Part shown: in pieces, positions 1-5,491 of the stretch | Layout of the letters: every line of letters starts with the position of its first letter | Position numbering within the stretch: the stretch's first letter is position 1 | UHGV virus genome: UHGV-0294068 | Source: a virus | DNA: 12,821 nt | Reading direction: 5' to 3' (one strand) | Program-made: the position numbers and the translations under genes | Notes under the pieces: generated by a model | Database searches by the model: none | What the model saw: the letters and a program-made list of their open reading frames with translations, nothing else | What the model was told of the DNA's origin: nothing

Positions 1-313
1 CCACAACCTTACAATCCTCGCAAGTGGACATGCCCCAGTTGATCAGCATTGAGATGAATGCGGATTTACCAATACCGTGACCAGAAGCGCGTGCCAGCAT
101 AAGCGGCTGATAGCGCGTCTCTGGATTCTGCAGGTGATCACGTATCTCTCGGAACGCATCAGCCTGCCACTGACGTGGGCCGGTGGCATGTGCCAGTTCA
201 GTCCCCTCTTCCCCCCACGGGAACGCATAGAGAGCATAGCCAAGCGGATCGTGAGTGAACCCTGCAATATCCTCGATCAACTGCTCTTCAGGAGATAACG
301 CTGTATCTGTCAC
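1..313 (-). CDS. Phage terminase large subunit, N-terminal part (gene continues past the window start)
   Basis: Minus-strand frame open from GTG at 313-311 (overlapping the terS stop as GTGA) to the window edge. My translation reads VTDTALSPEEQLIEDIAGFTHDPLGYALYAFPWGEEGTELAHATGPRQWQADAFREIRDHLQNPETRYQPLMLARASGHGIGKSAFISMLINWGMSTCEDCKVV, with a P-loop-like GHGIGKS. Absent from the ORF track because it has no in-window stop; track ORFs 43..267(-) and 77..298(+) are out-of-frame shadows. Confidence 0.85.
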   Translation of the reverse strand, partial: MTDTALSPEEQLIEDIAGFTHDPLGYALYAFPWGEEGTELAHATGPRQWQADAFREIRDHLQNPETRYQPLMLARASGHGIGKSAFISMLINWGMSTCEDCKVV

Positions 314-906
314 TGATTACCATCCTGACGTTCTTTGAGTCGCTTCCTGGCTGCCGCTATGCGATCAGCAATTGTCACATTCACATTAACATCCAGGCGT
401 TCTTTGAACGCGTTGACATCAACATGCTTACCAATCAGCTCAAGGTTCTTCACCTTGTCAGGCCATTTAATTTTTTTGAGGATTGTCTCTATCGAATCCT
501 CGTTCATGTTCATGATGGTCGATGACAGATCAAAGCCACTAAGCGTAGTGCGCCAGATTTTCGGCCACTCACGGATTGGTTTAAGGCTCCCATCGTCGTT
601 GAGGATGTCGATCACGTCCATCTGGTCGATCTCCACCAGGCGCATGAGAACGTAATCAGCACTGACGCGCATTCGTTTGTTGCGCTCCTCCATCAACTCG
701 GCAATCCGTTTTTGAATGCGTTCATCGCGCATCATGACACTGGCTTTAACTGCCGCTGTATTTGGGGAGAATCCTGCGTTAATCGCTGCCTGAGTTTGGT
801 TTTCAGGCGTTTTGATGTATGACTGGCAATAAGCCTCCTGCATTGTTGTTAGTGGCTTAAATTGCGTTGATTTGCGTTTATAGGTTTTAGGTTCAGCAGG
901 CATCAT
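310..906 (-). CDS. Phage terminase small subunit
   Basis: ORF 310..984(-) has the look of a small terminase subunit (KPLTTMQEAYCQSYIKTPENQTQAAINAGFSPNTAAVKASVMMRDERIQKRI). Start placed at tandem ATG 906/903 preceded by GGTGG; the track start at 984 is a TTG lying inside a hairpin. Stop overlaps terL start. Confidence 0.8.
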   Translation of the reverse strand: MMPAEPKTYKRKSTQFKPLTTMQEAYCQSYIKTPENQTQAAINAGFSPNTAAVKASVMMRDERIQKRIAELMEERNKRMRVSADYVLMRLVEIDQMDVIDILNDDGSLKPIREWPKIWRTTLSGFDLSSTIMNMNEDSIETILKKIKWPDKVKNLELIGKHVDVNAFKERLDVNVNVTIADRIAAARKRLKERQDGNQ

Positions 907-948
907 AACCACCGTGGTAATAGTTACCGTTGTGGTAATAGTACCATG

Positions 949-975
949 CAAAATAAAGCCGCCATAGTTGGCGGC
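949..975 (-). terminator. Candidate intrinsic terminator about 45 nt upstream of terS
   Basis: Plus-strand GCCGCCA-tagt-TGGCGGC (958-975) preceded by AAAATAAA; on the minus-strand transcript this is a 7-bp GC stem followed by UUUAUUUUG. Confidence 0.45.
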
Positions 976-1024
976 AGTATTCAAAATCCATCAAATTCAT
1001 CATGCATAATCTACTCGTGACATG

Positions 1025-1372
1025 TCACACTATTAATTTCGTTTCATGCCAGCCTTTAGTCACCCAGCATTGTGAGTCACCATTACACGGGCATGAATTA
1101 ACGGGAACTCTCTCGCCGCACTTACCGCAAAGTTTTCTGCTGATCGATTTTATACGCCCGCGCACACGTGCATCATCCTGGCGGATCAGCAGCGCGATGT
1201 ACTCGGCCATTTCATAGGGATCGCGACCAGGGCGCCGGGCGGCGCAGTTCCGCGCCAGCATTTCCTGCTCCTGCTTATCCAGCACCAGTTCAATTTTGCG
1301 CTCACCGGCGGCGGACTGCCGAGCGCGCTGCGCGGCTTTGCGTTCTGCGGGGGATTTAGCCACGAATCGCAC
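1025..1372 (-). CDS. Hypothetical protein, basic N-terminus and C-terminal Cys-rich zinc-ribbon-like motif (CGKCG...CPCNG)
   Basis: ORF 115 aa with GTG start at 1372; sits immediately upstream of the terS control region. Start and function uncertain. Confidence 0.4.
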   Translation of the reverse strand: MRFVAKSPAERKAAQRARQSAAGERKIELVLDKQEQEMLARNCAARRPGRDPYEMAEYIALLIRQDDARVRGRIKSISRKLCGKCGERVPVNSCPCNGDSQCWVTKGWHETKLIV

Positions 1373-1478
1373 TCCACGCCAGATTGATTAATAACTCCCA
1401 GGCAATATAAACCCGGATACCAGCAGCCAGGCCGAAACCAATCACCATGGCATAAAGCAGAGCGTTGCACTTGTTCAT
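1356..1478 (-). CDS. Putative small membrane peptide (40 aa)
   Basis: ATG at 1478-1476 overlaps the TAA stop of the upstream DUF551 gene by one base. Translation MNKCNALLYAMVIGFGLAAGIRVYIAWELLINLAWSAIRG has one hydrophobic helix. Below the ORF-track size cutoff. Confidence 0.3.
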   Translation of the reverse strand: MNKCNALLYAMVIGFGLAAGIRVYIAWELLINLAWSAIRG

Positions 1479-2047
1479 TACTTCACCTCCTGCGGTGGTT
1501 CCGGTAGCGGCATCCAGTGGGTTGCTTGCTCAATACCATTACCCGGCTTAATCGTTGCATCTCCGCGCCGAAAGGTGCTTCCGGTATAGCGTGCGGAGCA
1601 TATTAGCGGTTCAACCAGAGAGCTATCGAAATTCACCGAAATAAGCACGTTCTGGCCCTTTTCAGGCATTCGCTCACTACAGCTTATCCAACCATCCGGA
1701 GTTACCGGAGTTGGTCCATCGAATTCGGGCATGTCAGGACCTTTTCTGATAGCTTTAGCCAGCTCCAGCGGGTCATCGTAAAGCCAGTCGCCAGTTTGTG
1801 GGTGATTTGCTTCTGCAAGCTGCGCAGCCCATTCAAGACCATCTTTTTGACCTTGGAGATAATCAAGCGGCAACTCTTCATGATTACTTGCAGGTTCTGC
1901 ACTATCAGCTTCGCGCCGCTTCTGTAGCTCTGCTGCCATCGCTCTCACGACTTCAACTGGTGCCCTTGCAGCAAACTCTATGTTGGTGATCAGCTCATTA
2001 AGATATTGCTCGCTGGGATACTGTTTCTTATCGGTTATAGTGGTCAT
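1478..2047 (-). CDS. DUF551-like phage protein
   Basis: 189 aa; C-terminal THWMPLPEPP motif typical of DUF551; ATG overlaps the upstream stop (ATGA); AAGGAA RBS. Confidence 0.65.
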   Translation of the reverse strand: MTTITDKKQYPSEQYLNELITNIEFAARAPVEVVRAMAAELQKRREADSAEPASNHEELPLDYLQGQKDGLEWAAQLAEANHPQTGDWLYDDPLELAKAIRKGPDMPEFDGPTPVTPDGWISCSERMPEKGQNVLISVNFDSSLVEPLICSARYTGSTFRRGDATIKPGNGIEQATHWMPLPEPPQEVK

Positions 2048-2860: not shown

Positions 2861-3379
2861 TCACTCTCCTTTGATGCGAATGCCAGCGACGCGGGAATCA
2901 TTCCATCGCTTTACTTCTTCACGAATTACGTCAATGCATTCTTTCGAATCCATTAGGTAATCTTCATCAAAAAGACGTTCCTGTTCGTTTTCTATCGCAA
3001 CAATGATTGCTTCAACTAACTTTTGTGCCTGAGAACCACTTTCTAACTCTGCTATGCGCTTACTTCCATCCGCGATTACTCCCTCGTAATACTCACGCTG
3101 CTCGTTGAGTTTTAATTTTGCTGCCTCCAGTTCGTCCAGTAGTGCAATCACATCAGGGTCACTGTCATCAACTACTGTTACGCGTGATTTTTCATAATGC
3201 TCGTCGGCAAGTGTGCGACCAATTTTGAAATCTCCATCACCACCATAACCGGAGCAGGCATAAGTGACATGTGCTCCAGATATACGCTGTATTGACATTT
3301 CCTCGCCACAAACAGAGCATTCAGGTACTGGCTTAGGTGAATAACGTTCCCGTAGCGCCTGATAATCAATCTCGCTCAC
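2861..3379 (-). CDS. Hypothetical protein with N-terminal zinc-ribbon (CSVCG...YAC) and acidic central region (ELEAAKLKLNEQREYYE), possibly Ea22-like
   Basis: GTG start at 3379 six nt after a strong AAGGAGG RBS; 172 aa. Confidence 0.55.
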   Translation of the reverse strand: MSEIDYQALRERYSPKPVPECSVCGEEMSIQRISGAHVTYACSGYGGDGDFKIGRTLADEHYEKSRVTVVDDSDPDVIALLDELEAAKLKLNEQREYYEGVIADGSKRIAELESGSQAQKLVEAIIVAIENEQERLFDEDYLMDSKECIDVIREEVKRWNDSRVAGIRIKGE

Positions 3380-3860
3380 TGGTTGCCTCCTTCATAAAAA
3401 TAATCCAGTGGGTCTTGTCACCCTTTCCTGTTCGTTGACCGATAACAGGCTTTCTGTCGGTCAGTGCCAATATCTGGCGAACAGGTATTTGCGTTTCATT
3501 CCATTTAAAAATCAGAACGCCGTATGGCCACAACACACGAAAGGCTTCTTTGAATCCCTGCCGTAAATCATCACGCCAGGTATCTTTATTCAGCCGTCCA
3601 TATTTCTTTCCCATCCGAGCGTTATCACCAACACGCTCAAGATGCGGAGGGTCGAATACAACCATCGAAAAGGATGCGTCTGCAAATGGTAGTGCACGAA
3701 AATCAGCTATCAGGTCAGGACTGATAATCAGGCGTCGTCCATCACACAATGTGTGCTCTTCCTTTCTGATATCGCTAAATATCGCCCGGTCGTCATTCTT
3801 ATCGAACCAGAACATGCGACTGCCACAGCACATGTCGAGGATTGCTGCATGTCCAGTCAC
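3366..3860 (-). CDS. Small SAM-dependent DNA methyltransferase (orphan)
   Basis: Motif I-like DMCCGSRMF followed about 60 aa later by motif IV-like VVFDPPH. Start taken at GTG 3860 (AGGAGG 6 nt upstream, GTGA overlap with upstream stop); track start ATG 3893 is the alternative. No specificity domain evident. Confidence 0.65.
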   Translation of the reverse strand: MTGHAAILDMCCGSRMFWFDKNDDRAIFSDIRKEEHTLCDGRRLIISPDLIADFRALPFADASFSMVVFDPPHLERVGDNARMGKKYGRLNKDTWRDDLRQGFKEAFRVLWPYGVLIFKWNETQIPVRQILALTDRKPVIGQRTGKGDKTHWIIFMKEATSERD

Positions 3861-4384
3861 TGCTTGCCTCCTTTGCGAATCTGTTCCGCCCATTCTTCAA
3901 GGGATTTCTCCGCATATTCACCAGACAGGCCATCAATCGGATGCGCTTCATTAACCAACTCTTCTTTCGCTGACAAAATCATGCGTGTAACGTCGAAAAC
4001 TTCATGCAAAGACTTATTGATAAATCCGTGATTGAACGCAGCAGCAAGACGGCTGGCGGTATAGTTAATCCCCTCGTTGCGTGCTTCCGCACGAATTTCA
4101 GCCAGAAAAGCATCGGTAGCTGGGGTTTCTGGCATACAGTCAGCAGCGTCGAAATACTCTTCACTTTTGTCATCCCAAATCCAGCAATCATCTTTGATGA
4201 ACTTGTTCAGCCCTGCATTCTCCGCTGCCAGCGCATTAGCACGCACCAGTTGCACTTCCAGTTGCGTTGCCAAATCGCTGATCAGCTTTGCCACACTACG
4301 CATATCAACGGCACCACATTCTGCTTTCAGTTCCGAAGCCATCTCATGCCCGGCGGCAACTAACCCTTTGATATTACTTTCCAT
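3857..4384 (-). CDS. Hypothetical phage protein (175 aa)
   Basis: ATG 4384 with GAGGG RBS; acidic, helical-looking; no motif I recognise. Confidence 0.5.
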   Translation of the reverse strand: MESNIKGLVAAGHEMASELKAECGAVDMRSVAKLISDLATQLEVQLVRANALAAENAGLNKFIKDDCWIWDDKSEEYFDAADCMPETPATDAFLAEIRAEARNEGINYTASRLAAAFNHGFINKSLHEVFDVTRMILSAKEELVNEAHPIDGLSGEYAEKSLEEWAEQIRKGGKQ

Positions 4385-4430: not shown

Positions 4431-4463
4431 AAAAAGATCGTCGATTCATGCCGATCTATTTTT
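4431..4463 (-). terminator. Candidate intrinsic terminator at the 3' end of the HNH gene
   Basis: Plus-strand AAAAAGATCG-tcgattcatgc-CGATCTATTTTT; minus-strand RNA forms a stem followed by CUUUUU. Large loop, so weak call. Confidence 0.3.
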
Positions 4464-5054
4464 CATCAGTGATTCATAAAACTTTTGCCACTTATGCCGA
4501 CCGAAATTAGCCTTCGAGTTACAGCTCGAACAAAGGCAAATAAGGTTCTCCTGACGACAGTCTTGCTTGTCGTAATTGATGTGATGAGTTGTTAGCCTTT
4601 TGTCTGTTCCATCACAACCTGGGTTCTGACAAGTAAAACCATCTCGCTCAATAACCCTCTTGCTCGTTTCTCGGAAATCCCACGGATACGGCAATCTCGA
4701 TAATCCACCAGACCAGTTTGGATTTCCTTCCCCCTTCATCAGAGAAGAACGCATTATGTTGGAACACTGTTTCGAGCAGCATTTATGACGCTTCTCATGA
4801 CTCAAGAAAACGGAGAACGAAGATCCGCATACGCAGCATATTTTTAATACTCGCTTTAGTTCCCGATTTACCGTCTTGCCTCGCTGTGAAATTCCTACAC
4901 ACTGAAGTGAGCAGAACCTTGAAGATGAGTTGGCTCGCTTAACCTGATATTGCCTGCCACATACGGAGCAAACCTTTTCGATTTTCCCACCCTTCCAATT
5001 CGGGTTTTTATCACCGGATACAATCAATCCCGCAGCATTGGGCTTCTCGCTCAT
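4446..5054 (-). CDS. HNH endonuclease with duplicated zinc-binding modules
   Basis: HHINYDKQDCRQENLICLCSSCNSKAN HNH motif at the C-terminus; two NPNWKGG/NPNWSGG plus Cys-pair modules; ATG overlaps upstream stop (ATGA). Confidence 0.75.
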   Translation of the reverse strand: MSEKPNAAGLIVSGDKNPNWKGGKIEKVCSVCGRQYQVKRANSSSRFCSLQCVGISQRGKTVNRELKRVLKICCVCGSSFSVFLSHEKRHKCCSKQCSNIMRSSLMKGEGNPNWSGGLSRLPYPWDFRETSKRVIERDGFTCQNPGCDGTDKRLTTHHINYDKQDCRQENLICLCSSCNSKANFGRHKWQKFYESLMKNRSA

Positions 5055-5463: not shown

Positions 5464-5491
5464 ATTTTATTACCTAACAGGTAATTATCAA
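5464..5491 (-). promoter_or_regulatory. Candidate sigma70 promoter for the nin-like operon with an operator filling the spacer
   Basis: Minus strand TTGATA (5491-5486), 16-nt spacer, TAAAAT (5469-5464); the 17-bp palindrome ATTACCTAACAGGTAAT (5469-5485) occupies the spacer. Confidence 0.5.

Follow-up and report, generated by a model that had tools for sequence, protein, structure and literature searches.

A 40-codon prophage gene with the codon-level conservation of a coding sequence and a predicted membrane-spanning product

Gene-calling tracks often overlook membrane proteins of very small size, and among those that phages encode are some that potently modulate enzymes of the host membrane. 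Among bacterial proteins, AcrZ, MgtS, MgrB, KdpF, and CydX comprise 30-50 residues with one membrane helix, and each binds a larger membrane protein. The type I toxins Hok, TisB, Ldr, and Ibs are small hydrophobic peptides with a single helix, and prophages carry some of them. Iap is a hydrophobic peptide encoded by a phage. Produced by the temperate Pseudomonas phage D3, this very small protein inhibits the O-antigen alpha-polymerase of the host, an inner-membrane enzyme (PMC4815439; PMC12373910). Small accessory proteins of 40-90 aa that alter the O-antigen, named Gnarl1-3, have also been described from enterobacterial phages (PMC12373910).

The DNA analyzed here (the window; 12,821 nucleotides of virus genome UHGV-0294068) is a Uetakevirus-like (epsilon15/phiV10) prophage. 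Within it, an initial annotation had drawn attention to a 40-aa ORF at 1356..1478, described as encoding a single hydrophobic helix and as translationally coupled to a preceding DUF551 gene. Both the position and the peptide were confirmed, and the strand, which had been left unstated, is minus. The features of the locus, in the order of transcription, are:

1478..2047, minus strand: DUF551 gene, encoding a 189-aa protein with the domain at its end (Pfam PF04448, E=2.4e-22)
1491-1484, minus strand: Shine-Dalgarno site AGGAGGTG of the 40-aa ORF, with the GGAGG core ending 7 nt 5' of the ATG
1476..1480, minus strand: TAATG junction, a 1-base overlap between the DUF551 gene stop and the 40-aa ORF start
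1478..1356, minus strand: 40-aa ORF, MNKCNALLYAMVIGFGLAAGIRVYIAWELLINLAWSAIRG, running from ATG (1478-1476) to TAA (1358-1356)
1398..1460, minus strand: codons 7-27, the predicted membrane span LLYAMVIGFGLAAGIRVYIAW, with the invariant G14-F15-G16...A19-G20
1372..1375, minus strand: GGAG inside codons W35-S36, 8 nt 5' of the downstream GTG
1356..1363, minus strand: GTGGCTAA, the 8-nt overlap between the end of the 40-aa ORF and the GTG (1363-1361) of the downstream 112-aa gene
1025..1363, minus strand: 112-aa gene of phrog_536, orthologue of phiV10 gp55 and epsilon15 gp49, a 'transcriptional regulator' by label only
958..975, minus strand: intrinsic-terminator-like hairpin GCCGCCAACTATGGCGGC followed by TTTATTTT (z=-2.97 for the 91-nt stretch), which ends the early unit
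310..984, minus strand: small terminase subunit gene (Pfam Terminase_2, E=2.2e-29)

The 40-aa gene is already known, being catalogued as a hypothetical protein. It corresponds to phrog_5525 and WP_001030561.1, the same gene in the same position in E. coli prophages, from which it differs only by the L29 allele found here. The match to the phrog_5525 HMM extends over residues 1-40 and profile positions 1-40 of 40 (E=1.4e-28), and the PHROG label is unknown function. In E. coli genomes the orthologue is annotated by RefSeq/PGAP (WP_001030561.1), and in phages EC.W1-9 and phiv142-3 (Orf32) by GenBank; hence, while the ORF does fall below the size threshold of the track that accompanied the initial annotation, it had been recorded elsewhere. 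In complete E. coli genomes, 160/5426 (~3%) carry at least 80% of the 123 nt. The window allele encodes Leu29 (TTA, 1392..1394) where more than 90% of relatives have Ser29 (TCA); this allele is nonetheless common, as at least 1000 contigs encode the exact window peptide, for which the NCBI entry reads 'MULTISPECIES: hypothetical protein [Enterobacteriaceae]'. A search of the literature returned no paper that mentions any accession number of the family, and the papers on phiv142-3 and ZX5 concern other genes. Pfam and PADLOC gave no match for the peptide, NCBIfam gave one at chance level (MPN385, E=0.034, 14.8 bits against a cut-off of 120), and a profile search of PDB sequences returned only matches with E>=0.22. 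An exhaustive profile search of 1.84 billion representatives recovered approximately 17 true relatives, all of them uncharacterized and 39-69 aa in length; its top match, a repetitive protein of 2840 aa, was discarded as spurious. Neither a new kind of element nor a function is thus added to this catalogued, uncharacterized family. The value of the analysis is that the gene is confirmed to be real, that its conserved residues and cassette-like behavior are defined, and that it provides a short and cheap candidate for expression and target-finding screens.

Of the systems described above, AcrZ, MgtS, MgrB, KdpF, and CydX are similar to the 40-aa peptide in size and architecture, but those proteins are chromosomal, have their own promoters and regulation, and are not homologous to it; no family match was found. 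Iap, compared by description only, offers the clearest precedent for the mode of action suggested below, for which single-helix regulators such as AcrZ and MgtS are further precedents. Iap, however, is expressed in lysogens, as part of a seroconversion module that includes a phage polymerase, whereas the 40-aa gene is part of a lytic early operon with no wzy or acetylase neighbor. No phage O-antigen polymerase or modifying enzyme was found among the ORFs of nine representative loci, in the annotated records examined, or among the window ORFs scanned against PHROGs. The Gnarl proteins are also tiny products of phage accessory regions, and Gnarl1 is exactly 40 aa long as well; identity with Gnarl1 (MTEQDQRLKQFDEKLAELEKTIKQVQEQRREYINRKGLNK) was rejected, as that protein is charged and soluble and shares no sequence similarity with the peptide, and none of four motif strings of the peptide family was present in the supplements of PMC12373910 that were searched. 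Type I toxins are encoded at stand-alone loci with an antisense RNA antitoxin, while the 40-aa ORF is coupled within an operon; the window contains no Rfam match, and the strand opposite the ORF has no promoter-like site nearby. With respect to holins and pinholins, the gene is not located in a lysis cassette, being flanked by the DUF551 and phrog_536 genes, followed by the small terminase gene. Its C-terminus (...AWSAIRG) has a single charge, and in the window a single ATG directly follows the TAA; some relatives read GTGATG at the start, and the extra residue adds no charge. A lipoprotein or o-spanin (Rz1-like) would need a signal peptide with a lipobox cysteine, which was not found, the sole cysteine of the window peptide (Cys4) preceding the hydrophobic segment and being replaced in relatives (C, I, S, or V). 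No family among the PADLOC defense and counter-defense models was hit at E<=0.1 by the peptide or by four neighbors. Membership among the type I toxins, holins, spanins, Iap-type proteins, and PADLOC families therefore fails in each case on at least one of the defining features tested.

A length of 40 codons is not by itself significant. Among the 97 ORFs of 30-60 aa in the window, 11 encode a hydrophobic stretch of 19 residues; the ORF at 1478..1356 is the only one of these 11 with a Shine-Dalgarno site. It exactly occupies the gap between two genes. The TAA of the DUF551 gene (1480-1478) shares one base with its ATG, and this TAATG, together with the strong Shine-Dalgarno site, bears out the coupling proposed earlier as far as sequence features can. 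In relatives the junction reads TAATG or TGATG, and a GGAG-type site is kept 6-9 nt 5' of the start, including in loci with an unrelated upstream gene. Compared to shuffled sequence, the start region shows no excess of structure (z=+1.04). At the other end, the GGAG in codons 35-36 is the probable ribosome-binding site of the 112-aa gene; the same position holds GGAG, GGGG, or AAGGAG in most relatives, the site being weak in one group (L069-L074), and an xTG-GCT/CCT-AA junction is common to all relatives that retain the downstream gene. A terminator-like hairpin inside the ORF (1417..1397) was considered and set aside as weak; its tail, AGTTATTAAT, spans codon 29, and because this codon is TTA here and TCA in relatives, the hairpin was not treated as a conserved feature.

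Conservation of the frame and codon-level selection, which the initial annotation had proposed for examination among related prophages, were assessed with 72 full-length copies gathered from IMG/VR contigs, GTDB genomes, phage records, and E. coli genomes. All 72 are intact, with neither a frameshift nor an internal stop. They vary in length only in a diverged subgroup, where the C-terminus is extended by 5 codons, and the one exception at the start is a copy (L064) with ATA in place of ATG and a GTG one codon upstream. Pairwise dN/dS, computed in all six frames over 27 distinct nucleotide sequences, was 0.17 in the ORF frame. Of the other five frames, four gave values of 1.0-2.8, and the remaining one, which is antisense and has its wobble positions in common with the ORF, gave 0.31 but is interrupted by stop codons in 27/27 sequences. 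The other frames carry stops in many or all relatives. Third codon positions are variable in 33/36 cases, compared to 12/36 for second positions. A tree-based count, made by parsimony on a neighbor-joining tree, yielded 131 synonymous and 110 non-synonymous changes, corresponding to an omega of ~0.27 (p=9e-24 vs neutrality), with ~0.20 in the membrane segment (codons 7-27). The codons for K3, L7, G14, G16, A19, and G20 change 5-7 times each, only synonymously. The SJ46 subfamily shows a weak Shine-Dalgarno site and an excess of non-synonymous over synonymous changes in every pair compared, on too few substitutions to bear on selection. A 94-aa ORF in another frame (1186..1470, minus strand), spanning the 40-aa gene and the start of the regulator, was rejected as an artefact with an omega of ~1 and stops in 24/27 relatives. 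Judged by these patterns of substitution, the 40-codon frame is a genuine, conserved, protein-coding prophage gene. Lack of a conserved reading frame in related prophages had been named as evidence that would count against the ORF; this objection does not apply, because both the frame and its ribosome-binding site are conserved.

With the family alignment, AlphaFold2 predicted one helix over residues 3-39 (pLDDT 92.7), and the Kyte-Doolittle mean over 19 residues reaches 1.85, above the threshold for a membrane span; both agree with the single hydrophobic helix read from the sequence at the outset. The Wimley-White octanol dG of residues 7-27 is -6.7 kcal/mol, and residues 26-40 are amphipathic. 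The peptide is accordingly predicted to be a single-pass inner-membrane micro-protein, spanning the membrane with residues 7-27 and ending in an amphipathic tail. Its charge is +1 on the N side and about +1 on the C side, a balance that leaves the topology ambiguous. Invariant or near-invariant positions are K3, L7, Y/F9, G14, F15, G16, A19, G20, W27, and W35, and a polar residue (R, H, or Q) always occupies position 22. Conservation showed no significant fit to helical periodicity (permutation p=0.64), and a claim that the conserved residues form a single helix face was dropped on this result.

Reading along the minus strand, the window presents a PR-like promoter (7746..7718), a cro-like gene, a tR1-like hairpin (7440..7421), O-like and P-like replication genes, genes for a RusA-like resolvase and an HNH protein, an accessory block (methyltransferase, Ead/Ea22-like, DUF551), the 40-aa gene, the 112-aa phrog_536 gene, a good intrinsic-terminator hairpin (975..958), and the small terminase gene. 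The 40-aa gene is the second-to-last gene of this early-right (PR-type) transcription unit. Its earlier assignment to a late-proximal operon holds for its position near the late genes, but not for the unit to which it belongs, and the regulator and terminator hairpin separate it from the terminase. No promoter-like site lies directly upstream of the 40-aa gene, the nearest on the minus strand being those at 5491..5464 and 7746..7718; such sites were recognized by consensus alone, and their number falls below the chance expectation. From its location in the early-right unit without a promoter-like site of its own, we infer that the gene is expressed in the lytic phase.

Several further features of this unit were noted. 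The promoter-like site at 5491..5464 (minus strand) matches the consensus at 10 of 12 positions, lies in a 117-nt gap between the P-like and resolvase genes, and could drive the accessory block separately. The hairpin with a T-run just 3' of the cro-like gene (7440..7421, minus strand) is strong and tR1-like, and implies antitermination or read-through. An HNH endonuclease gene occupies 4446..5054 within the early-right operon, and each early arm carries a separate DNA methyltransferase gene (3366..3893, minus strand; 11626..12288, plus strand). The hairpin at 958..975 separates the last early gene from the small terminase gene, and late-gene expression must therefore pass or bypass a terminator. 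The small terminase gene is 594 nt long in EC.W1-9 and TL-2011b and 675 nt as called by PGAP (TTG start at 984); the longer version would contain this hairpin, and the 594-nt version, with its ATG near 903, is probably the correct one.

The 112-aa protein encoded just before the terminator belongs to no Pfam or NCBIfam family and is called 'hypothetical' in every source. Its AlphaFold2 model has a pLDDT of 63 and gave no significant fold match, the best Foldseek E-value being 1.4. It contains an invariant cluster of cysteines (C79, C82, C91, C93, and C99), and by our own reading residues 22-65 may follow a strand-helix-helix pattern. The position of phrog_536 ahead of the terminator and terminase gene suggests that it may be a late-gene regulator. 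The program ORF list begins this gene at GTG 1372; conservation supports GTG 1363, as in RefSeq, and the start is ATG in several relatives. With 245-659 E. coli genomes carrying it and 786 clusters at 90% identity, the phrog_536 gene is far more widespread than the 40-aa peptide, for which there were 41 protein matches.

Other phages have different genes in the slot immediately 5' of phrog_536: an ASCH-domain gene in phiV10 (L079, 332..613) and a DUF2591 gene in TL-2011b (L002, 3357..3698). Both overlap the start of phrog_536 by the same 8 nt as the 40-aa gene, and comparison of these sequences shows the 40-aa gene as one of several alternative cassettes in the slot before the last early gene. 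The gene has also been found away from this arrangement. In lambdoid nin-type regions it lies beside a truncated stub of the regulator (L005, L054, and L061), and in four other loci (L049-L052) beside a 49-aa chimera that takes its first 12 residues from the regulator. Two further loci have other downstream genes and encode intact peptides with 68% (L065) and 65% (L067) identity to that of the window. A distant subfamily, with 53% identity over 36 residues, stands alone in SJ46-type P1-like phage-plasmids (225 plasmid records). Given its occurrence in lambdoid prophages and, on its own, in P1-like phage-plasmids, the 40-aa gene behaves as a portable accessory gene. Partial copies exist as well: the chimeras L075 (3001..3066) and L076 (2137..2202) retain only codons 19-40, truncated chimeras P0036-P0041 keep the 3' half of the ORF, E. 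coli remnants H100-H105 retain approximately codons 20-40, and remnant H106 retains instead the 5' part, approximately codons 1-21. The breakpoints of L075, L076, and H100-H106 point to a recurrent recombination joint near codons 19-21.

A separate observation concerns the E. albertii plasmid pEA32_2 (L081), a P1-like element. The DUF551 protein encoded there at 517..1062 differs at one position from that of the window (1478..2047) over its first ~52 residues, and a distant homologue of the 40-aa gene lies 365 nt 3' of its DUF551 gene. Accessory blocks thus appear, from such shared segments, to be exchanged between integrated prophages and phage-plasmids.

Taken jointly, the observed and predicted parts of this description, namely a genuine coding gene with start/stop overlaps on both sides, placed at the end of the early-right operon, behaving as a portable cassette, and specifying a predicted membrane helix, can be held with good confidence. 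In view of the strong constraint on the gene, including the invariant glycines of the span, its presence in ~3% of complete E. coli genomes and 225 phage-plasmid records, and its movement between phage types, the peptide very probably does something. What it does, including the host-directed effector role raised in the initial annotation, is proposed here tentatively. The peptide would be made during lytic development, and not in the lysogen, and would work in the membrane through side-by-side packing of its helix by way of the invariant G14-F-G16-x-x-A19-G20 and the polar residue at position 22. Its partner would most likely be a host inner-membrane protein, the activity of which would be changed by the peptide, a role as modulator that comes from inference only; G14 and G16 lie on different faces of the helix, an arrangement that fits self-assembly at least equally well. 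A more specific version, and a doubtful one, is that the peptide is a portable effector exchanged among three unrelated temperate backbones (Uetakevirus-like, lambdoid, and P1-like phage-plasmid), and that by docking through its glycine-rich helix it would switch off one conserved enterobacterial inner-membrane machine in lytic growth, for example an envelope-synthesis, division, or membrane-bound defense protein.

Self-assembly leads to an alternative that is improbable, a membrane-perturbing peptide of the Hok/TisB toxin type or a holin, with glycine-packed helices that would depolarize or permeabilize the inner membrane and so serve host shut-off or the timing of lysis. The short hydrophobic helix, its conserved polar residue within the span, and its invariant glycines on two faces (G14 versus G16/G20) would suit such an activity, as would synthesis apparently confined to the lytic program, where toxicity is tolerable. 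The location of the gene between the DUF551 gene and the putative regulator, and not in a lysis cassette, argues otherwise, as do the lack of a charged C-terminal tail, of a dual start in the window copy (TAATG), of any antisense RNA or separate promoter among the features found, and of toxin-family similarity in Pfam, NCBIfam, or PADLOC.

A partner encoded by the phage itself would also be improbable. The peptide would then tether or modulate the DUF551 protein or the putative regulator, with translational coupling setting the stoichiometry. Consistent with this, the 8-nt overlap with the start of the regulator is present in most loci. Of 79 loci, 53 have a DUF551-domain gene adjacent to the 40-aa gene, and a further 7 have one within 1 kb (P1-like plasmids included). 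Many of those 53 are near-identical copies, however, and hence not independent, and the other 19 of the 79 have no DUF551 gene within 3 kb upstream. Several loci lack the regulator or have only a stub of it, and an obligatory linkage to either neighbor was rejected on the basis of the loci without each. Moreover, both proposed partners are far commoner than the peptide, with 855 E. coli records for DUF551 genes and 659 for the regulator versus 195 for the peptide.

It is very unlikely that the frame acts mainly in cis, its translation bringing ribosomes to the weak GTG of the regulator while the peptide itself has little function. The start of the regulator does lie within the last codons of the ORF, preceded by its GGAG in codons 35-36, and the truncated chimeras (L075, L076, and P0036-P0041) retain exactly the 3' half. 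Purifying selection nevertheless covers the entire amino acid sequence and peaks in the membrane segment, well away from the junction, and intact copies exist without the regulator, as does the stand-alone gene. Since the ASCH and DUF2591 cassettes make the same 8-nt overlap, coupling belongs to the slot and not to the peptide. A chance ORF in a non-coding spacer, an origin that the commonness of small hydrophobic ORFs (11/97) might suggest, is already effectively refuted by the codon-level analysis, given the conserved frame, start, and ribosome-binding site, an omega well below 1, and the stops that all other frames contain in relatives.

A second small membrane ORF was observed in the window at 11233..11349 on the plus strand. 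It encodes 38 aa, MSALLRHWIKWSGWYLFLASVSAWLYLLALIFREGWIK, and matches phrog_17484, labeled 'membrane protein' (E=2.5e-26). This ORF shares 4 nt with each of its neighbors, the excisionase-like gene that precedes it (10988..11236) and the phrog_868 'transcriptional activator' gene that follows (11346..11645), and its layout, with a small membrane ORF directly 5' of a putative regulator, mirrors that of the 40-aa gene.
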